Below, in pieces: positions 2,571 to 18,786 of a stretch of DNA of 20,019 bases (the stretch's first letter is position 1; each line of letters opens with the position of its first letter). The notes under the pieces were generated by a model. That model saw only the letters and a list, made by a program, of their open reading frames with translations, was not told the origin of the DNA and did no database searches. Made by a program: the position numbers and the translations under genes. Source of the stretch: a virus; UHGV virus genome UHGV-0180141. The stretch is one strand, 5' to 3'.

Positions 2571-4736
2571 ATGGCCGACGAAAACAGACTCAATTCCATT
2601 CTGTGTAAGTTTGACGCAGACTGGATGGCGAGCGATGAAGCCAGAACCGAGGCGACAAATGACCTGTATTTTAGCCGAGTGTCGCAATGGGATGACTGGC
2701 TATCAAACTACACTACCCTGCAATATCGCGGACAATTCGATGTTGTTCGCCCGGTGGTCAGGAAACTGGTCGCAGAGATGCGCAGGAACCCTATCGACGT
2801 TCTCTTCCGACCCAAAGACGGCGCTAATCCTGATGCTGCCGATGTGCTGATGGGGATGTATCGTACTGATATGCGCCATAACACGGCAAAAATTGCCGTT
2901 AACGTTGGCGTTCGTGAGCAGATAGAGTCCGGCGTTGGTGCATGGCGTCTGGTCACGCAGTACGAAGACAACGATCCAACAAGCAACAATCAGGTAATTC
3001 GACGCCTGCCAATTCATGAAGCCTGCTCACACGTCATATGGGACGCCAACAGCAAGCAGATGGATAAGAGCGACGCTAAGCACTGCACGGTGATTAACGC
3101 TTTGTCACGCAATGGCTGGAAAGAGTTCGCAGAGGATTACGGTATTGATCCGGATACCTTGCCATCTTTCCAGAATCCGAACGATACATGGCTGTTTCCG
3201 TGGGTATCGAATGATGTCGTCTACGTCGCTGAGTATTACGAGGTCGAAGAGAAGAAAGAGAAAGTCTTCATCTACCGCGACCCACTGACAGGTGAGCCAG
3301 TCAGCTATTACCAGCAGGATATCAAAGACGTCATCGACGACCTGGCTAATCGTGGATTCATTAAGGTAGCAGAGCGTAAGGTGAAGCGTCGGCGTGTGTA
3401 TAAGTCGATTATCACCTGCACGCAGATACTGAAAGACCGCGAGAAGATAGCCGGAGAGCATATTCCAATCGTTCCAGTGTATGGCGAATGGTCATTCGCT
3501 GGTGACAAGGAGTGCTACGAAGGAGTGGTAAGGCTGACGAAAGACGGTCAACGCCTTCGTAACATGATCATGTCGTTCAACGCCGATATTGTTGCTCGTT
3601 CACCGAAGAAGAAACCGACCTTCTTCCCTGAGCAAATCGAAGGCTACGAATACATGTACGGTGGAAATGATGACTATCCGTACTATCTGCAGAACAGGAC
3701 CGATGAAAACGGTAACGACCTGCCGATTGGTCCAATCTCCTACATGGAAAACCCTGAAGTGCCGCAAGCCAACGCTTACATGCTTGAGGCTGCCACCAAC
3801 GCAGTGAAAGAGGTGGCTAGTCTTGGTGTGGATGCGCAGGCAGCAAACTCTCAGGTCGCTTTCGATACCGTCAATCAACTGAACATGCGGGCAGACCTTG
3901 AGACATACGTGTTTCAGGATAACCTGGCTACCGCAATGCGACGTGATGGCGAGATTTATGCCTCAATGGTCAATGATATTTATGACGTTCCTCGTCATGT
4001 AACGCTGACACTTGAAGATGGAAGCGAGAAAGACGTTCAACTCTATGCGCAAGTTGTCGATTACCAGTCCGGCAATGTGGTCACACTCAACGACATTCGC
4101 GGTCGCTATGAGTGCTATACAGACGTAGGACCATCCTTCCAGAGTATGAAGGAACAGAACCGCGCAGAGATTCAGGAGTTGCTCACCAAGGTTCCGCAAG
4201 GTACTCCAGAGTTCCAGATGCTGATGCTGCAATACTTCACGCTGCTTGACGGTAAAGGCGTCGAGATGATGCGAGAGTACGCGAACAAGCAACTGGTGAT
4301 GATGGGGCTGAAGAAGCCAGAAACACCTGAAGAGATGGAGATGGTACAGCAGGCTCAACAGCAGCCGCAGCAGCCATCAGCAGAGCAAATTCAGGCGCAG
4401 GGTATCCTTCTGCAAGGTCAGGCTGAATTGCTCAAGGCAGAGAACCAACAGGCGCAGATTCAGGTTGAAGCCGCCAAGGTTGAAGCCCAAAACCAACTCA
4501 ACGCCGCGAAGATTGCAGAAATCTTCAACAATATGGACCTCGACAAGCAGGCAGAACTGCGTGAGTACCTCAAGCTCGTAGGTCAATTCCAGCAACAGCG
4601 CAGCAAGGACGCTCGTGCTAACGCTGAGCTGCTTCTTAAAGATGCAGACCAGACTCATTCACAACGCATGGATTTCGCGAATCTTATGCGTCAAGTTCAA
4701 ATCCCCTCCGGCGGAGTAGCCGAGACACCTCAATAA
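2571..4736 (+). CDS. portal protein (P22 gp1-like)
   Basis: 721 aa (P22 portal is about 725); ATG abuts the terL stop (TAAATG); long Q/A/E-rich helical C-terminus consistent with the P22 portal barrel; position after terL. Confidence 0.93.
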
Positions 4737-6250: not shown

Positions 6251-7546
6251 ATGACTCTCAAAGAAGGGCAGTTAGTTACTTACGCTATCGATGAAATCAT
6301 CGAAACCGTCCAGAACTTGACGCCAATGGCGTCCAAAGTGACAAAATACACCCCCCCGGCAGAATCCATGCAACGTTCAAGCAACACCGTGTGGATGCCT
6401 GTTGAGCAGGAAGCGCCAACTCAGACTGGCTGGGATTTAACTGGCAACGCTACCGGGATTCTGGAACTCTCCGTGAAATGCAACATGGGTGATCCGGATA
6501 ACGATTTCTTCGAGCTTCGTGCAGATGACCTGCGTGATGAGCGTTCTTACCGTCGCCGCATCCAGGCATCAGCCAAAAAACTGGCGAATAACATTGAGTC
6601 AGCGATTGCCAAACAGGCAACTGAAATGGGCTCGCTTGTTGTTCACGATACCCGCGCAATTGGTCCATCTACTGGCCTGTCTGGCTGGGATTTTGTGTCT
6701 GATGCAGAGCGCCTGATGTTCTCCCGTGAGCTAAACCGCGATATGGGCATCAGTTACTTCCTGAACCCTGACGATTACCGCAAAGCAGGCCGCAACCTGG
6801 TAGATGGTGACATCTTTGGGCGCGTTCCTGAAGAAGCGTATCGCAACGGTACTATTCAGCGTCAGATTGCTGGCTTTGATGAAATTCTTCGCTCACCGAA
6901 ACTTCCGGCAGTTACCAAGTCAACCGCTACTGGTGTAACTGTTTCTGGTGCGCAGAAGTTTAAGCCGCAGGCATACACCCTTGATACCGATGGTAACAAA
7001 GAGAACGTCGACAACCGTGTTGCAACGGTGACCGTATCCTCCACCACCGGATTTAAGCGCGGCGACAAAATCAGCTTCACTGGCGTGAAATTCCTGTCTC
7101 AGATGGCGAAGAACGTGCTGACTGATGACGCGACTTTCTCAATCACCCGTGTGATCGATGGTACTCACATCGAAATCACGCCGAAGCCTATTGCGCTGGA
7201 TGACGCGTCACTGACAAAAGAAGAGAAGGCTTACGCTAACGTAAACACCTCTCTTGCTGATACCACTCCGGTAAACGTTCTGAACGTGGCAACAACCACC
7301 GCTAACGTGTTCTGGGCTGATGACTCAATCCGTCTGCTGTCTCAGCCGATCCCGGTAACCCATGAGCTGTTTGCTGGCATGAAAACGTCTTCCTTCAGCA
7401 TTCCTGGTATTGGTGTTAACGGCATCTTCGCAACGCAGGGTGATATCAACACTCTGTCTGGTAAGTGCCGTATTGCTGTGTGGTATTCAGCATGTGCTGT
7501 ACGACCAGAGGCAATTGGTGTTGGTCTGCCTAACCAGACCGCGTGA
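6251..7546 (+). CDS. major capsid (coat) protein (P22 gp5-like)
   Basis: 431 aa (P22 coat is 430); conserved blocks recognisable from P22 coat ([52 protein letters not shown]). Confidence 0.95.
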
Positions 7547-11734: not shown

Positions 11735-13051
11735 ATGGCTACGTGGCAACAGGGTATTAATTCTGGTGGTTTTCTGGCTGGCATCGGTACGCAAAATGAG
11801 AATGCGCCAAAGGCAAGCGACATTAACGCAACGCTTGGTCTGATCCGCGAAAACAATGAACTGGCTCGCTCAGGTGCAAATAACGTTGGGCTGACTGCTT
11901 TGCAAGGCCTTTCAGGCATTGCGGAGTCTCAGCGGCAGAAAGAATTTCAGCAGGCGTACGCTAATGCTTATGCGTCTGGTGATCGCAGTGCTTTGCGTCA
12001 GTTGGCTACTCAATATCCAGAACAGATTGAATCCGTTCGTAAAGGCATGGGATTCATTGATGAAGATCAGCGTAATTCTATCGGCACCTTAGCGGCTGGC
12101 GCACGCCTTGCGTCATCGTCTCCTGATGCGATGGCTAACTGGCTGCAATCTAACGCCGGTGAGTTAGCTCGTGTTGGCGTTAATCCTCATGACGTCGCTC
12201 AGATGTACCAACAGAACCCGCAGCAGTTCGGCGAATTTGTCGATCACCTGGGGATGGCCAGTCTCGGACCCGAAAAATACTTTGACCTACAGGATAAAAT
12301 GCAGGGTCGCCAGGTTACCATGCGCGGTCAGGATCTGGATTCGCAAACCGCCGCCCGGAATCAGGCAATCACAATGCGCGGACAAGATATCCAGGCGAAT
12401 TTAGGTCAACAGCGCATTAATCTGGACGCAGAAACAAACCGCATTAACTACGAAAATAAGCGCCTTGACCGGATGCTATCAGCAGAAACTAACGACCTGA
12501 AGCGCCAGGAAATACAGAGCCGCATAGCAGCCAACAACCAGCAGTTGCAGCAGAAGCAGCAAGCGCTAAATGATGGCTACAAAGACGGCATCAACACTCT
12601 CACAACCAGCATGTTCACTCTGAACGATATCGTTAGTTCTCCTTCACTTAAGAGCATTACAGGCTTACGTGGAGTAATCCCCAACGTTCCAGGCTCACAG
12701 GCTGCAGACACTCAGGCACGACTTGATACCTTTAAATCCCAAGCATACCTGACAGCGGTTCAGGCCATGCGAGGCATGGGCGCACTTTCTGATGCCGAGG
12801 GCAAAAAGCTCGACCAGGCTGTTGGTTCGCTGCAGAACTCGCAGAGCGAGGAGTCCTTTCGTCGCAACGCTGGCGTCATCCTGAACACACTCAACCAGAA
12901 GCGTAATGAGGCGGTTGGTAAGTACGTTCAGCAAAACGGTATCAAGCGAGTGGAAGCGCCTCAGGCTTCTATAGATTACCTGAAGCAGCACCCCGAGCTG
13001 TCAATCGACTTCATTAATCGCTACGGATATCTTCCATCTTTGGGGCAGTAA
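11735..13051 (+). CDS. ejection (injection) protein (P22 gp20-like)
   Basis: 438 aa; position between gp7-like and gp16-like genes; low-complexity Q/A/N-rich composition typical of ejection proteins. Confidence 0.78.
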   Translation: MATWQQGINSGGFLAGIGTQNENAPKASDINATLGLIRENNELARSGANNVGLTALQGLSGIAESQRQKEFQQAYANAYASGDRSALRQLATQYPEQIESVRKGMGFIDEDQRNSIGTLAAGARLASSSPDAMANWLQSNAGELARVGVNPHDVAQMYQQNPQQFGEFVDHLGMASLGPEKYFDLQDKMQGRQVTMRGQDLDSQTAARNQAITMRGQDIQANLGQQRINLDAETNRINYENKRLDRMLSAETNDLKRQEIQSRIAANNQQLQQKQQALNDGYKDGINTLTTSMFTLNDIVSSPSLKSITGLRGVIPNVPGSQAADTQARLDTFKSQAYLTAVQAMRGMGALSDAEGKKLDQAVGSLQNSQSEESFRRNAGVILNTLNQKRNEAVGKYVQQNGIKRVEAPQASIDYLKQHPELSIDFINRYGYLPSLGQ

Positions 13052-15787
13052 ATGGCTAATTACCGTGATTTGTTAGAGCAGGCTGGCGCACGTTACGGTG
13101 TGCCAGAAGGGTTGATGACTGCACTGGGTGCCAAGGAGTCTTCTTACAACCCTGCCGCAGTAAGCTCCGCCGGGGCTGTAGGATTGACTCAGGTCATGCC
13201 TGGGACATGGCGTGATATGGGTTATACCGATGAGCAAATGCAAAACCCCGAATATCAGGCTGACGCTGGCGCGCGCTATCTGGCAAAGATGTACCAGCAG
13301 TTTGGTAACTGGCGTGACGCTCTTCAGGCTTATCACGACGGCCCCGGCAACGTTATGAAGGCAAAGCGTGGTGAATATACGCCAGGACCTGAAGGCCGCG
13401 GTTACGTTGATGATCGCTTTGCTCAATGGGCGGGTGACCCGGTGACAGACTCAACAGTCGAACAGCGCGCCACCTCTGCAAAGGTACATCCTCAGCAAGA
13501 CCCTAACAACCCGTTTGCACAACTGGAAGCACAGTCATCCGAACAAGTATCGGCATCAGGCGTGCAGTCAGACCCAAATAATCCATTTGCTCAGATTGAG
13601 CAGCAGGCAGCCAGTCAGCAGCCACCTCAACCCGTAAGTTCTGTCGCACCGAAACCTGTTCAGCAACAAACAGTTAATCAGGCCAATAATGCACCAACAC
13701 GGGAAGAACCATCATTGATGCAACAAGCTGGTGATTGGCTCACAGGTGGTCAAAGTGCAGGGCAAATTGCAGAGCAGGCTGGTCGTGGTCTGGTAAACAT
13801 ACCATTTGACGTATTGCAGGGTGGCGCAAGTCTGATTAATGCAATCAGCCAGGGGCTTGGTGGCCCCAAGGTTTTGGACGATGTCTATCGTCCAGTAGAT
13901 CGACCGACAGACCCTTATGCGCAAGCTGGAGAGTCAATAGGCGGTTATCTTGTTCCTGGAGCAGGAGTAGCTGGAAACATGGTCATTGGTTCTCTCGCTG
14001 ACGCGGCGAATCAACGGGGTGATTTTGCCGAAAATGCCGCTATTAATGCCGGACTTAACATTGCTACGCATGGCCTGATAAATGGCGTTACCCGTGGTGT
14101 TCGTGGCGCATCAAATATAATTAGTGGCAATAAAACATCTGCACAGAGAGCGACCACTGCGCCAACAGAAACATCACCATTCTCCGGTGATGCCGCTGCA
14201 GCAACAAATCCTGCGGTTCATGCCGCAGAGGCAAGAGCAGCACAAGGTGTACCAATGACGCCTGCGGCGAGGGACCCAGAGGAGGTCGTTCGCACAGTAG
14301 CAGCACAAAAAAGGCCAAATCTCGCTTCATCGCTTGATGAACTAGATATCAATCCTCAGGCTGAAGTTCTGGAGTCTGCTGAAAGGCTTAATGTTGATTC
14401 ATTACTCCCTTCACACTTTTCCGGGAACGAGCAATACAAGGCAGTTGAGCAAGCAATCAAGTCCCGTGCGGGTTCTGCTCTACGGGTGCAGGAAAATGAA
14501 GCAATCAGGCAACTAGCACAGGGCGCGGGGGAGATAATTGATCGCGTTTCCGGTGCAAAAGATGCTCTTGGTATGAGCGACAAGTTTATTGATACGATCA
14601 ATGGAAGAATGTCTGCGCTGATGAAACGAAGCGACCAGCTTTATCGCAATGTTGAAAAGGCGATGCCTGCAGGTGCAAAAATTGATGCGCCATCAACAAG
14701 GTCAATGCTCAAACAGGTGGCAGAAGATCTTGGCGGGATGAAAAACCTTGACCCTATTGAAAAGAGAGTCTTTCGGGCAGTTAATCCAGGCAAGAACGGC
14801 GCATTAACTTATGCAAATCTCAATAAGCAACGACGACTTGTTGGTGATGCACTTCATAAGAAGTCTGGACCATATAAAGATGCTGATCGCGCTGCTTTAT
14901 CGAGGCTTTACGGTTCGCTCGCCGATGATCAAAAGGCGGCGCTGTCAGAGACAAATGCATTACGTGATTTTGAAGTTGCTCAGAGGCTTGTTCAGATGCG
15001 AAAAAGCATGGAAGAGCAAATGATTAATCTAACTGGCAGAACACTGAACGGTGATGTTTCTCGCAAAGCAACTACAGCACTACAGGCAATGTCGAAAGGC
15101 GATGCCAAAGGATTTCGTGAATTGATGCAAAACACGCCGTCCAGGAAGCTAAGAACCGAGCTACTGGGAACAGGTCTTCGGGATATGCTTTCGAACGGAA
15201 AACGTGGCGCTGATTTTAATCCTGCAGGGTTTGCTGACTGGTATCAAAACATGTTAGCAAACGGGCAGATGCGCAATCTTGCCCGACATTTACCAAAAGA
15301 GACTATGTCAGGTCTGAACGATGTATATAAGGTCGCAAAGGCTATCAAAGACGCAAAATCTTACGAGATAACTACAGGAAGACTAAACGAGTTCGTCAAA
15401 CGGTTTAATCGCGTCACTGCGGCAAATGAATTTGTTGCTAACCATGCCCAACGCATTGGCACTGCGGTTGGTTCAACTGTGTCAGGACCGTTCAGTGCAG
15501 TAGGTGCTGTTGCTGGGTCAGAAATTGGGGCAAAAGTCGCCAGCAAAATCAGGGCGATGGGCGGCGCTGAATCAATTGAATCTGCAGAAAAGCTAATTAG
15601 CTCACCAGAATTCCAGAAAGCAGCAAGGCTGGCAGTAAAACAAGCACCAGAAAGCATCGTTGATACAACTGTAAGACGCTCTTCTGCTTGGCGCTCGTTT
15701 TACAACTCACTTCCAGAATCAGATAAGAAAACCATATCAAGGCTAGGCATCATGTACTGGATGAACAGTGATGATAACCAGAAGTAA
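13052..15787 (+). CDS. ejection protein (P22 gp16-like) with N-terminal lytic transglycosylase (SLT) domain
   Basis: 911 aa. N-terminal ~110 aa carries SLT-like motifs ([10 protein letters not shown] with candidate catalytic Glu, [19 protein letters not shown]); then a Q/P-rich linker with a tandem DPNNPFAQ(L/I)E repeat, then a long helical/Ala-Gly-rich body. Last gene of the plus-strand string, start abutting the gp20-like stop. Confidence 0.85.
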
Positions 15788-15804
15788 CGGAAAGCCACGG
15801 ATGG

Positions 15805-15888
15805 TTAGTTGCTGTCTTTTTTATATAAATCTCTGAGCGTATCAAAGACAATTTTCTTTACCATATCGGATTGTTGGTCTGCAATACG
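15805..15888 (-). pseudogene. remnant of the 3' end of a P22-type mnt gene (C-terminal ~27 codons only)
   Basis: Minus-strand translation gives ...RIADQQSDMVKKIVFDTLRDLYKKDSN*, closely matching the P22 Mnt C-terminus (...RLADEQSELVKKMVFDTLKDLYKKTT, from memory). No Mnt-like N-terminal region upstream in any frame. The frame is continuous with the lipoprotein ORF stop at 15976-15978. Confidence 0.5.
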
Positions 15889-15975
15889 CGATGCTATTGG
15901 TAGCGATGAATTCAATCGCTTGTCGAGAGCTGGTATTGTCGCCTCGTTAAGCGGTATGAATGAATATGAATAGCT

Positions 15976-16461
15976 TTATCTAATGTTGCTGCTACTGTTG
16001 CATGTGACGGTATTTCCAAATCCTGAATTGCAGTTTGTATATGTGTCAACGCGCGTTGGGTAAGGTTGAGTTATAACAGGCTGGCGCGCTTTTTGCTCGA
16101 TCGCTTGCATTGTGTTTACAGCCTGATAATTCAATAAAGCCTGCTGGAATGCTTGGCTTTGTGCTATTTGTTGGGCTTGTTCTTGGCTTTGTAATTGAAC
16201 ATAAAGATTCTGAAGCTCAAGTCTTGCCTGCGCGTCACTTATCTTGCCATCATCGACACCTTGCCCGAGCATCTTCGCAGCAAGGACATATAACTTAGGT
16301 GTTGGTGCTGATGCCATGCGTGAGTCGTTCTTCACACTGGCATCAAGGCAATTAGCCATATCGCTAAGCTTTGGATAGCGTTGCTCGCAACTTGCCTGAT
16401 AGTCGCTTACTTTTGCGCACCCAGCCAGCAGAAGCGGGATAATTAACAGTGATTTTTTCAT
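15976..16461 (-). CDS. predicted lipoprotein (161 aa) of unknown function; possible superinfection-exclusion moron
   Basis: Start chosen at internal ATG (rc of 16459-16461) giving MKKSLLIIPLLLAGC..., a signal peptide with lipobox LAGC; strong RBS TAAGGAGAG 8 nt upstream. Mature part is Q-rich/helical with a Cys-containing C-terminus. The track ORF extends 17 codons upstream to 16512 without an RBS. Confidence 0.72.
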   Translation of the reverse strand: MKKSLLIIPLLLAGCAKVSDYQASCEQRYPKLSDMANCLDASVKNDSRMASAPTPKLYVLAAKMLGQGVDDGKISDAQARLELQNLYVQLQSQEQAQQIAQSQAFQQALLNYQAVNTMQAIEQKARQPVITQPYPTRVDTYTNCNSGFGNTVTCNSSSNIR

Positions 16462-16495
16462 ATAATTAACTCTCCTTAGTTTTGCGCAGGATACC

Positions 16496-16861
16496 ATGAA
16501 AAAAGTTAACATTGGAAACGTACCAAAGATGCTCGTTCCGCTCTTTGAGAGCGGTACAATTGTGTTTTGTAGAGACTTTCCAGAATGGCAACGCCTGCAT
16601 CAAAAACTTGGCGTTGACGTGCATGACTCGGACGCCAACGGAGCGTCTCATACAATGAGCAGCGAGAATGGTGTTTTGCATGTGATAGGCGTGTTCAATG
16701 GCAAACTATCTACTATTGCCCATGAGTGCGCTCACATGGCATTCGATATCTGCTCAAGGGTCGGCGTTGATGTTGAACCAGGAAGAGCCAACGAGACTTA
16801 CTGCTACTTAATGAGCAGGCTTGTTGAGTTCTGCGAGCGACATATCAAAAAGCCGGAGTGA
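16496..16861 (+). CDS. small HExxH-motif protein (121 aa), putative ImmA/IrrE-like zinc metallopeptidase
   Basis: Contains ...VLHVIGVFNGKLSTIAHECAHMAFD..., fitting the (F/T)(I/L)AHE..H pattern of M78/ImmA-type peptidases, with candidate third ligands (Glu/Asp) downstream. AGGA 5 nt upstream of ATG; divergent from the lipoprotein gene with only 34 bp between start codons. Confidence 0.6.
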   Translation: MKKVNIGNVPKMLVPLFESGTIVFCRDFPEWQRLHQKLGVDVHDSDANGASHTMSSENGVLHVIGVFNGKLSTIAHECAHMAFDICSRVGVDVEPGRANETYCYLMSRLVEFCERHIKKPE

Positions 16862-16872
16862 CCCGGCTTGAT
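16851..16872. terminator. putative bidirectional terminator between convergent genes
   Basis: Hairpin AGCCGG-agtgac-CCGGCT (16851-16868) with T-rich sequence on both strands; overlaps the stop codon of the HExxH gene. Confidence 0.45.
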
Positions 16873-16874
16873 TA

Positions 16875-17054
16875 TTACTTTTTGCTGTCTGGAGTTCGCT
16901 TATCCAATACCCAGCCATGACCTGGCTTTGTTGTTGGTGGAAGCCTTTCATTGTCCTTGACGGTGGCAAAATTGTCTTTCTTACCGCCGCGTGGGCCAAC
17001 TTCTTGGTATATTCCGCCGTTTTTTCCCGTGTTTTCACCTGGTTTTTTCGCCAT
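16875..17054 (-). CDS. hypothetical small Gly/Lys-rich protein (59 aa)
   Basis: Start at internal ATG (rc of 17052-17054) giving MAKKPGENTGKNGGIYQEVGPRGGKKDNFATVKDNERLPPTTKPGHGWVLDKRTPDSKK, with RBS GAGGT 6 nt upstream; terminator hairpin downstream; candidate sigma70 -35 TTGACT (rc of 17114-17119) upstream. Confidence 0.45.
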   Translation of the reverse strand: MAKKPGENTGKNGGIYQEVGPRGGKKDNFATVKDNERLPPTTKPGHGWVLDKRTPDSKK

Positions 17055-17144
17055 GATATACCTCAACATGCACCCGTTATTGGGCGATTAAATATTGATC
17101 TCATTTTATAAGTAGTCAATATGGCCCAGGTAAATGCAAAAATT

Positions 17145-17168
17145 AACCCACCGTCAGGTGGGTTTTTT
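17145..17168. terminator. putative bidirectional rho-independent terminator at the 3' end of the mnt-like gene
   Basis: Hairpin AACCCACC-gtca-GGTGGGTT (17145-17164) followed by TTTTTT on the plus strand and by TTAATTTTTGCATTT on the minus strand; the mnt-like stop codon lies in the loop. Confidence 0.55.
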
Positions 17169-17474
17169 GTTTAGCAGTTCTCTCAACTTTTCGTTCTGCT
17201 CTCTGAACTTTTCCTGTATTTCTTTTTGCATGGCGATAACCTGGGCTTGAAGTTGAACTAGCGCATCAACATTTAGCGGAACCGAGACGCTGTTGATTTT
17301 GTCTGCTATTTCCCCAAGAGTATTTTCTGCATTCAAGGCATCTTCCAGTATCTGCACAATCTCTGAGTTCATAGAGCGCCCGTTTCGTTTGGCTCTCTCC
17401 GCAATCGCGTCCCTCATCCCGTCAGGGAAACGCACAACAAACTTTTCGTAATCTTTAACCTGCTTTTCAGCCAT
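17154..17474 (-). CDS. mnt: Mnt-like ribbon-helix-helix repressor (106 aa)
   Basis: N-terminus KFVVRFPDGMRDAIAERAKRNGRSMNSEIVQILEDAL matches the Arc/Mnt RHH fold signature (NGRS(M/V)NSE); helical C-terminal extension; GAGGTG RBS 5 nt upstream; divergent from the arc-like gene as in P22 immI. Confidence 0.8.
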   Translation of the reverse strand: MAEKQVKDYEKFVVRFPDGMRDAIAERAKRNGRSMNSEIVQILEDALNAENTLGEIADKINSVSVPLNVDALVQLQAQVIAMQKEIQEKFREQNEKLRELLNKKPT

Positions 17475-17493
17475 AACATCACCTCAAAAAAAA

Positions 17494-17556
17494 CAATGAT
17501 GGCATATTGCTATTTATATTCAATGATGGCATATTGCTTTCAAGGCATAATGCCAT
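17494..17556. promoter_or_regulatory. candidate immI operator/promoter region (Pant/Pmnt with Arc/Mnt operator repeats)
   Basis: Perfect 18-bp direct repeat CAATGATGGCATATTGCT at 17494-17511 and 17521-17538 (27-bp period), plus inverted element GGCAT-a-ATGCC at 17544-17554 sharing the ATGGCAT core; candidate -10 CATAAT (17546-17551) for the rightward arc-ant promoter and TTGAAA/AATATA-like elements on the minus strand for mnt. Confidence 0.5.
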
Positions 17557-17576
17557 TACGTAAAAAGGAGTGATCA

Positions 17577-17738
17577 ATGGAAAAGAATGAAGTGAAGACA
17601 ACTCTTCGGTATCCGTACCGTTTTAAGGAGGAGGTGAAACGCATCGCTAAGGAAGAGGGGATGTCAGAAAACTCAGTGTTGGTTCAGGGACTTGCTTGGT
17701 GGTTGAAGTACCGGGAGAAAATGCGGAATGCTCTCTAA
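17577..17738 (+). CDS. arc: Arc-like ribbon-helix-helix repressor (53 aa)
   Basis: Hand translation MEKNEVKTTLRYPYRFKEEVKRIAKEEGMSENSVLVQGLAWWLKYREKMRNAL; 53 aa as in P22 Arc, with an RHH-like beta-strand/helix pattern; AAAGGAG RBS 6 nt upstream; directly upstream of ant. Below the ORF-track size cutoff. Confidence 0.72.
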   Translation: MEKNEVKTTLRYPYRFKEEVKRIAKEEGMSENSVLVQGLAWWLKYREKMRNAL

Positions 17739-17809
17739 AAATAACGAAGCCCCGACAGCGGGAACTGGCGAGGCTTCTACATCAACAAATCTGATCGGGA
17801 AATATTGAC

Positions 17810-18688
17810 ATGAAAAGTATAGCAAAGGCACAAAACGATTTCACCATCTTCAAATTCGGCGACAGTGAAATCCGCGTCATCAACAAGTGCGGTGAGCCGT
17901 GGTTTGTAGCAAAAGATGTTTGTGATGCTTTAACTCTGACTAACTCACGCAAGGCGCTTACTGCACTTGATGACGATGAGAAGGGAGTAACTTTAAGTTA
18001 CACCCTTGGTGGTGAGCAGAATTTAAGCATTGTGAGCGAATCAGGTATGTATACATTGGTTCTGCGCTGCCGCGATGCAGTCAATAAAGGTTCAGTCCCG
18101 CACAAATTCCGCAAGTGGGTAACAGCAGAAGTTCTGCCTTCAATTCGCAAACATGGCGAGTATGTAAAAGGAAAGAAAACCACTGTTGAGGAAAGAACAC
18201 CGCTACGAGATGCAGTAAACATGCTGGTAGGAAAGAAAGGACTTCGCTATGACGATGCATACAATATGGTTCATCAGCGTTTTGGTATTGACAGCATTGA
18301 TGAACTTTCAATTGAACAAATCCCGCTGGCCGTAGAGTACATCCACAGGGTAGTGCTTGAAGGTGAGTTCATTGGCAAACAAGAGAAGAAAACCAACGAG
18401 CTTTCTGCAAAAGAAGCAAACAGCCTTGTATGGCTATGGGATTATGCCAACCGCTCACAGGCATTATTCCGCGAATTGTATTCGGCGCTAAAACAAATTC
18501 AATCGAACTATTCCGGCAGATGCTACGACTACGGTCATGAATTCTCGTATGTTATCGGAATGGCGAGAGACGTTTTAATCAATCACACACGAGATGTTGA
18601 TATTAATGAGCCAGACGGACCAACGAATCTTTCCGCATGGATGAGACTTAAGAATAAAGAATTACCTCCTTCAGTACATAACTACTGA
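17810..18688 (+). CDS. ant: antirepressor Ant (BRO-N/KilA-N-type N-terminal domain)
   Basis: 292 aa (P22 Ant about 300); N-terminal [18 protein letters not shown]...[10 protein letters not shown]...[17 protein letters not shown] is the Bro-N/antirepressor signature; follows arc. Confidence 0.85.
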
Positions 18689-18706
18689 CAGATAACCAAC
18701 GCAACG

Positions 18707-18729
18707 ACCCAGCTTCGGCTGGGTTTTTA
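18707..18729 (+). terminator. rho-independent terminator after ant
   Basis: Hairpin CCCAGC-ttcg-GCTGGG (18708-18723) followed by TTTTT. Confidence 0.6.
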
Positions 18730-18786
18730 TGTCCAAAATTCACCGTAGCCATGCTTTGGCGATTCCTTGTATCTGGAGTAAATTAA

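Follow-up and report, generated by a model that had tools for sequence, protein, structure and literature searches.

Back-to-back mnt and gene 16 remnants at a probable illegitimate recombination joint in a P22-like genome

The stretch of DNA analysed here (20,019 nt in full, hereafter the window) comes from a P22-like (Lederbergvirus) prophage or phage, of which it covers the late-operon and immI part. Between its intact gene 16 and a lipoprotein gene, positions 15805–15973 contain no gene, only two pseudogene fragments that share 9 bp where they meet: one, on the minus strand, is the 3′ end of an mnt gene, and the other, on the plus strand, that of a foreign gene 16 allele. We are confident that this interval is a non-functional joint produced by illegitimate, microhomology-guided recombination between two P22-like genomes; that one exchange between genomes made it, and that the stumps have no function, are the parts of this explanation that we infer. 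The gene 16-to-tailspike region of P22-like phages was named the 'ant moron' by Villafane et al. (2008; PMC2629481), and it is highly variable across these phages, with degraded ant or arc in some of them (PMC2629481). The features of the window that are needed below are as follows.

11735–13051, gene 20-like
13052–15787 (plus strand), intact gene 16 (DNA-ejection protein), transglycosylase type, 911 aa, from the ORF and Pfam SLT
15788–15804, 17-nt spacer separating the stop of gene 16 from the convergent stop of the mnt stump, from alignments
15805–15889 (minus strand), remnant of an Sf101-type mnt: the stop and the last 27 codons (RIADQQSDMVKKIVFDTLRDLYKKDSN)
15881–15889, probable recombination joint, 9-nt microhomology GCAATACGC
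15881–15973 (plus strand), 3′-terminal remnant of a foreign gene 16 allele, made up of its final 30 codons (AIRDAIGSDEFNRLSRAGIVASLSGMNEYE) and the stop
15976–16461 (minus strand), lipoprotein gene, 161 aa, MKKSLLIIPLLLAGC..., phrog_6067
16496–16861 (plus strand), 121-aa ORF
16875–17069 (minus strand), orf59a homologue, 64 aa
17154–17474 (minus strand), mnt-like RHH repressor, intact, with an Arc domain and another C-terminus
17577–17738 (plus strand), arc
17810–18688 (plus strand), ant
from 18787, tailspike gene, running past the end of the window

The gene at 13052–15787, in which the SLT transglycosylase domain is N-terminal (Pfam, E 3e-25), is the one functional gene 16 in the window, of the Sf101 gp13 type and from the left parental lineage. 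The resident immI module at 17154–18688 (mnt-like repressor, arc and ant) is intact. For the lipoprotein and the 121-aa and 64-aa ORFs, searches with NCBIfam and PADLOC brought no useful result. In the divergent intergenic region between the mnt-like gene and arc, a perfect 18-nt direct repeat, CAATGATGGCATATTGCT, is present at 17494–17511 and 17521–17538 with a spacing of 27 nt, and the two copies probably serve as operators in this immI variant. Hairpins rich in GC and accompanied by T tracts lie at 16850–16869, at 17145–17164 and, after ant, at 18707–18728; of these, the first two are scored as terminators on either strand. The hairpin at 17145–17164 takes in the last codons (KKPT) and the stop of the mnt-like gene; homology to P22 ends at the same place (17170), and the hairpin so marks a module boundary.

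Two gene remnants between gene 16 and the lipoprotein gene

On the minus strand, 15805–15975 translates to SYSYSFIPLNEATIPALDKRLNSSLPIASRIADQQSDMVKKIVFDTLRDLYKKDSN followed by a stop codon (15805–15807). The original prediction had likened the end of this ORF to the C-terminus of P22 Mnt, and the resemblance is real and far beyond chance. In a pairwise BLASTP comparison with authentic P22 Mnt (NC_002371.2; NP_059641.1), the similarity was significant: 19 of 26 residues were identical (73%) and 25 of 26 positive over Mnt residues 56–81, with a pairwise E of 2e-13. Moreover, the stump matched the Pfam family Repressor_Mnt (PF11423) at profile positions 4–28 of 28 with 48.1 bits, against a cut-off of 20.9 bits (E 9.4e-13), and the structure of the Mnt tetramerisation domain, PDB 1QEY, at positions 4–30 of 31 (E 3e-8). 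The stump codes for almost the entire autonomous Mnt tetramerisation unit. Pfam found no Arc/RHH domain (PF03869) among the 56 codons upstream of the stop, so that the absence of an Mnt DNA-binding domain upstream of the remnant, as originally described, is borne out. The stump also has no start codon, no promoter and no operator of the Pmnt/Pant region, and arc–ant does not adjoin it. The 5′ half of mnt was found nowhere in the window, and nothing in the window corresponds to the 5′ part of the Sf101 mnt with its promoter region either. The intact mnt-like gene at 17154–17474 does have a different C-terminus, as had been noted; it contains the Arc RHH domain only and aligns with P22 Mnt over residues 2–44 alone. 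Set beside P22 Mnt (1MNT, 1QEY), the stump thus aligns to the C-terminal domain and by itself is without the RHH, whereas at the nucleotide level it is nearer to the Sf101-type allele than to P22 mnt.

The remnant was originally placed at 15805–15978, and of this interval only 15805–15889 is derived from mnt. The DNA beyond 15889, on the side where the rest of mnt would lie, is the gene 16 remnant (15881–15973) and then the lipoprotein gene. Automatic annotation has picked up the first of the two stumps: in three RefSeq genomes (DBA32_RS06855, C6669_RS29810 and KZO72_RS25075) PGAP calls the equivalent of window 15805–15894 an 'Arc family DNA-binding protein, incomplete, missing N-terminus', and in a fourth it labels the stump as a 19-aa hypothetical protein. 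The pseudogene calls concern the same stretch, but the adjoining gene 16 remnant, the parents and the joint go unrecognised in them.

The second stump, the plus-strand 3′ end of a different gene 16 allele, had been overlooked in the original prediction. From 15881 the window matches the 3′ end of gene 16 of phages CurroJimenez, Huey, Dewey and Louie at 94.7%, and HK620, CUS-3 and epsilon34 match the stump at about 80%. Its translation, which ends at a TAG stop (15971–15973), is the C-terminus of the gene 16 proteins of those phages. A full-length gene is not present here; gp16 family proteins have ~600–900 aa and are encoded after gene 20, and the stump holds the last 30 codons only. In the alignments it shows zero mismatches to the end of the intact gene 16 of E. 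coli 2020CK-00188 (L007), and the allele is of the CurroJimenez/2020CK-00188 type. The two gene 16 alleles are homologous to each other, with 33% amino acid identity (E 3e-70). A 6-bp TGAATA 'duplication' relative to CurroJimenez (15959–15970) was considered as a change specific to the window and rejected, because it occurs in intact donors; this indel is allelic variation of the gene 16 C-terminus and not a product of the joint. The C-terminus reads GMNEYE in the window and in most intact donors, and GMNE in CurroJimenez, CFSAN064035 and the IMG/VR contig L012.

The two parental arrangements and the formation of the joint

That the remnant comes from a truncated mnt homologue stands, but its source is an mnt of the Sf101 type (97 aa) and not that of P22. 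Among isolated phages the closest DNA is that of Shigella phage Sf101, with 95% identity over window 15700–15889, a match that takes in the end of gene 16, the 17-nt spacer and the 3′ end of mnt. The protein Sf101 gp14 (YP_009153088.1; 97 aa) has both an Arc RHH domain (E 5.7e-14) and Repressor_Mnt; it is a complete homologue of Mnt under the wrong label of 'partition protein ATPase', and its alleles in E. coli prophages are annotated 'Arc family DNA-binding protein'. Gp14 and these alleles have the same sequence up to the joint and the same position, convergent with and 17 nt from a transglycosylase-type gene 16, and the spacer is identical in the phages with intact mnt that were aligned (Sf101 and the contigs L046 and L027); the genes are complete in these relatives, while the window has only their last 27 codons. 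With a coverage threshold of at least 80%, intact Sf101-type mnt was present in 254 of 5426 complete E. coli genomes, a count of mnt alone irrespective of its neighbours; intact mnt beside an SLT-type gene 16 was seen in Sf101, L046 and L027. Over 15740–15889, L046 (IMGVR_UViG_2671180357_000001), whose mnt is intact and whose Mnt protein ends in ...DDAERIADQQSDMVKKIVFDTLRDLYKKDCN, differs from the window by 1 nt. Among the 120 intact mnt alleles surveyed in IMG/VR, the bases G..A that the window has at 15877/15883 were the rarer form, carried by two, of which L046 is one. Judged by its sequence, L046 is effectively the left parent.

The right parent is equally recognisable as an intact arrangement, which consists of a complete gene 16, 2 nt, a convergent lipoprotein gene, and then the 121-aa ORF and orf59a. 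It is intact in at least 14 complete genomes, E. coli 2020CK-00188 included, and in about 17 IMG/VR contigs (L007 and L010 are examples overall). In L007 the stops of gene 16 and the lipoprotein gene are at 3593 and 3596, and in the window the stop of the lipoprotein gene is likewise 2 nt from that of the stump; L007 3501–4789 corresponds to window 15881–17170 at 98.3% identity. The 121-aa ORF and orf59a (16496–17069) arrived with the lipoprotein gene from the donor lineage. Window 16472–17170 is also 97.9% identical to P22 (NC_002371.2, 13837–14535; L008, 2838–3536); homology to P22 restarts at 16472, and the lipoprotein gene occupies the slot that holds sieA in P22.

Some further features of this cassette were observed. 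The lipoprotein gene is directly downstream of a region homologous to the P22 sieA promoter. The 121-aa ORF has an HExxH-like motif, HECAH; it is open in P22 (L008, 2862–3227), although the record does not annotate it, and PMC2629481 mentions an 'hkcC' that may be this ORF. In phage CurroJimenez_Bas106 (L003, 3088–3115) and in IMG/VR L148, about 26 nt of the 3′ end of the lipoprotein gene (TTATCTAATGTTGCTGCT...) follow the gene 16 stop before the sequences diverge, and this remnant is a deletion scar of the lipoprotein cassette.

The two lineages meet abruptly and away from any gene boundary. Window 12701–15889 is 99.0% identical to Sf101, after which the homology stops, exactly at 15889; homology to the donors begins exactly at 15881, and the overlap is GCAATACGC. 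This 9-mer is complete (9 of 9 positions) in the mnt of L046 and L027 and in every donor gene 16, and matches at 8 of 9 positions in Sf101; it is read as the codons R-I-A on the mnt strand and A-I-R on the gene 16 strand. Comparison across P22-like prophages hence places the breakpoint within 15881–15889, and since both intact parental arrangements were found, the original proposal that recombination left a scar, one of whose junctions falls within an ancestral mnt, is directly supported and narrowed to 9 nt. BLASTP continues the alignment with Sf101 Mnt beyond the joint (LNEATIPALDKRL versus LNSEIIAAIEESL), and we judged this run-on to be chance because the DNA concerned is without mismatch to an intact gene 16 3′ end on the other strand. 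Special targeting of GCAATACGC was rejected. The parents share nine 9-mers (about seven sites), compared with 2.8 expected in shuffles, and two 10-mers, neither of which was used for the crossover. Insertion of a mobile element was rejected as well: there are no direct or inverted repeats flanking the segment and no other marks of a mobile element, and since the far end of the segment has no 5′ half of mnt, the event was a replacement and not an insertion.

In the simplest model, one illegitimate, microhomology-guided crossover and one homologous crossover would account for the present arrangement. The left parent would have carried a gene 16 of the transglycosylase type with a convergent mnt of the Sf101 type behind it, and the right parent the other gene 16 allele and, 2 nt further, the convergent lipoprotein gene, the 121-aa ORF and orf59a. 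Strand exchange would have occurred inside GCAATACGC, 9 nt that the two parents had in common by chance. The product would keep the whole gene 16 of the left parent and the whole lipoprotein cassette of the right parent, and what would be left between them is a pair of back-to-back stumps, 85 nt from the 3′ end of mnt and 93 nt from the 3′ end of gene 16. Relative to an Sf101-like genome, window 15890–18771 takes the place of the 5′ part of mnt and its promoter. Sf101 homology returns 15 nt before the start codon of the tailspike gene (18787) and extends across the conserved head-binding domain. The second crossover was therefore presumably a normal homologous one, near the tailspike start. 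The original prediction went on to take the joint as marking the lipoprotein cassette as newly acquired DNA. This does not follow, because it is equally possible that gene 16 with the mnt stump entered a phage that already bore the lipoprotein gene.

Distribution and later history of the joint

The exact joint was found in 7 of 5426 complete E. coli genomes (ETEC1703, ETEC1717, ETEC1718, ETEC1730, WCHEC050613, PK8217 and CFSAN064035) and in 5 IMG/VR contigs; the pattern was absent from GTDB species-representative genomes, and no isolated phage of the phage collection contained the whole joint. The cargo past the joint consists of XhlA, Rap1a/Tai and immI in WCHEC050613, of a short immI in ETEC1730 and PK8217, of another gene 16 fragment (900 nt) followed by the tailspike gene in CFSAN064035, and of a wholly different gene set in the contig L015. 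Because the cargo differs in this way among joint-bearing genomes, the joint is older than much of the local reshuffling.

Two of these relatives have further features near the joint. In CFSAN064035 (L005, 4415–5314) and in IMG/VR L012, the 900-nt fragment to the right of the lipoprotein gene is the 3′ part of yet another gene 16 allele; PGAP labels it in CFSAN064035 as 'lytic transglycosylase domain-containing protein, missing N-terminus', and the breakpoint (window about 16435) is inside the signal-peptide codons of the lipoprotein gene. L015 (IMGVR_UViG_2636416136_000013) has on its minus strand, at 7060–7257, a 65-aa ORF that starts with ATG and has the Mnt C-terminal domain at its end; its overlap with the stop of an upstream 148-aa gene is 8 nt, as is typical of translationally coupled genes.

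Across copies of the joint the mnt stump is polymorphic and shares its variants with intact alleles, and the gene 16 stump is nearly invariant. Two haplotypes are found right at the joint, G..A and T..C at 15877/15883, within 6–12 nt. This pair speaks against one simple origin, and needs either exchange with intact alleles up to the border of heterology or a second origin of the joint; a single origin is the more parsimonious of the two, because many alternative microhomologies were available. The view of a dead scar has also to accommodate the persistence of the stumps in at least 12 sequences with varied cargo and no further deletion, which could hint at use, and the almost unchanged gene 16 stump among the copies.

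A second, independent joint argues against a purely random position of the first. In the prophage of E. coli 203740 (L009, NZ_CP025913.1, about 6439–6800), which has two tandem immI modules, a truncated ant (Bro-N, ...LVLRC) is fused to the same gene 16 stump, and this ant/gene 16 joint uses another 9-nt microhomology, CGCGATGCT (window 15887–15895), only 6 nt from the mnt joint. The proximity may be a coincidence or may reflect a local hot spot. With two different joints only 6 nt apart, illegitimate recombination might conceivably recur at a hot spot in GCAATACGCGATGCT, from the end of this gene 16 allele.

Expression, alternative explanations and meaning

Within 15788–15976 we found no consensus match for a terminator- or promoter-like site, RNA folding of both strands was no better than that of shuffles (z −1.5 and −0.8), and no Rfam family was found in the whole window. 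The mnt stump frame has no ATG ahead of the Mnt domain and no Shine-Dalgarno (SD) sequence; as candidate starts the window offers only a TTG at 15915 and an internal ATG, both lacking an SD. Passive transcription of the stump is probable, because no terminator lies downstream of the lipoprotein gene. Late-operon transcription of P22 passes through this region into the tailspike gene (PMC2629481), and by the same read-through the other strand is probably transcribed passively as well. The original prediction had also drawn attention to the frame of the remnant, which is that of the lipoprotein ORF with its stop at 15976–15978. This is true in the window, but it is incidental and the frame is not conserved open. 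Sharing of the frame is a one-in-three coincidence, and in WCHEC050613 (L004) two substitutions at the equivalent of window 15943–15945, GCCTCG to GCTTAG, create a stop both in the plus frame of the gene 16 stump and in the minus-frame continuation of the lipoprotein gene.

The same scar could have arisen in another way, by an intragenomic deletion between two copies of GCAATACGC after an additive exchange had joined both modules. This route would pass through an intermediate ordered gene 16, mnt, intervening DNA, second gene 16 and lipoprotein gene, the product of unequal or additive exchange. Duplicated pieces are known in this region, as in the tandem immI modules of E. coli 203740 and the second gene 16 fragment of CFSAN064035, and CurroJimenez shows that lipoprotein-gene deletions occur. 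Nevertheless, intact Sf101-type mnt together with a complete second gene 16 was present in none of the loci examined. P22-like headful packaging limits the surplus DNA per genome, which restricts the extra DNA that such an intermediate could carry. We hence consider the deletion route rather unlikely, and a direct exchange between two genomes the better explanation of how the joint formed. A different question is whether the stumps have been retained because they are useful. They might act as homology patches, or linkers, for the swapping of downstream cargo, serving phages with either type of gene 16 or with an Sf101-type mnt. The variable cargo of joint-bearing prophages would fit this, as would the mnt stump haplotypes that recur in intact alleles and the match of L015, which ends inside the gene 16 stump at 15958 and is followed by the end of another gene 16 allele and other cargo. 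However, later use of the stumps needs no selection for their retention, 85–93 nt is short when complete flanking genes give far more homology, and the present data fit neutral persistence equally; retention for this purpose seems improbable.

Still more doubtful is that the stump is made as a small protein of the Mnt tetramerisation domain that poisons Sf101/P22-type Mnt tetramers, in an anti-Mnt function or in interference between phages. The stump does span positions 4–30 of the 31-residue 1QEY peptide, which reportedly tetramerises on its own. As no terminator lies between the lipoprotein gene and the stump, the two are probably co-transcribed, assuming that the lipoprotein gene is transcribed, and the same frame in L015 has the 65-aa ORF with its own ATG and its overlap with the upstream gene. 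A decoy that started at TTG 15915 in the window and was the coupled 65-aa ORF in L015 is, in our estimate, just as improbable. If true, the small protein would mix with incoming or co-resident Sf101/P22-type Mnt and derepress their antirepressor, which would make it a repressor-poisoning decoy born of a recombination scar. Against this, the window offers neither an ATG nor an SD for the stump, the amino acid differences among copies are allelic variants of intact genes and not the mark of a new constraint, WCHEC050613 has the in-frame stop upstream, and the resident Mnt-like repressor is without this domain, so that an obvious cognate partner is not found in the same phage. Least credible of all is a readthrough of the lipoprotein stop into a lipoprotein–Mnt C-terminal fusion, to which we give next to no weight. 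The frame is shared and has no stop between 15975 and 15808 in the window. But the lipoprotein stop is TAA, another TAA interrupts this frame in WCHEC050613, and the 29 codons in between are antisense to the gene 16 remnant and would be open by chance about one time in four, on top of the prior of one in three for a shared frame. Moreover, a periplasmic lipoprotein would have no use for the oligomerisation helix of a cytoplasmic repressor.

A non-functional joint between two P22-like genomes thus remains our preferred explanation. Degraded ant and arc genes are described in the 'ant moron' of HK620 and Scho1 (PMC2629481), which is the same region and the same kind of immI remnant from mosaic exchange; unlike in those phages, the remnant in the window is mnt, the gene 16 stump lies back to back with it, and the parents and the 9-nt joint can be named. 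The interval is ordinary though unusually well documented phage mosaicism in a known hypervariable region, and it would be new biology only if the stump proves to be expressed. For annotation, the in-frame continuity of the ORF with that of the lipoprotein should not be called a fusion. The lipoprotein gene, the 121-aa ORF and orf59a move as a block with the end of a particular gene 16 allele. Such joints are normally inferred, and both stumps are seldom visible together. Here we have a clean, fully resolved case of how P22-like mosaics form, by a crossover at 9 nt of chance identity within two genes, in which both intact parents still circulate and the scar was inherited and then reshuffled with different cargo.
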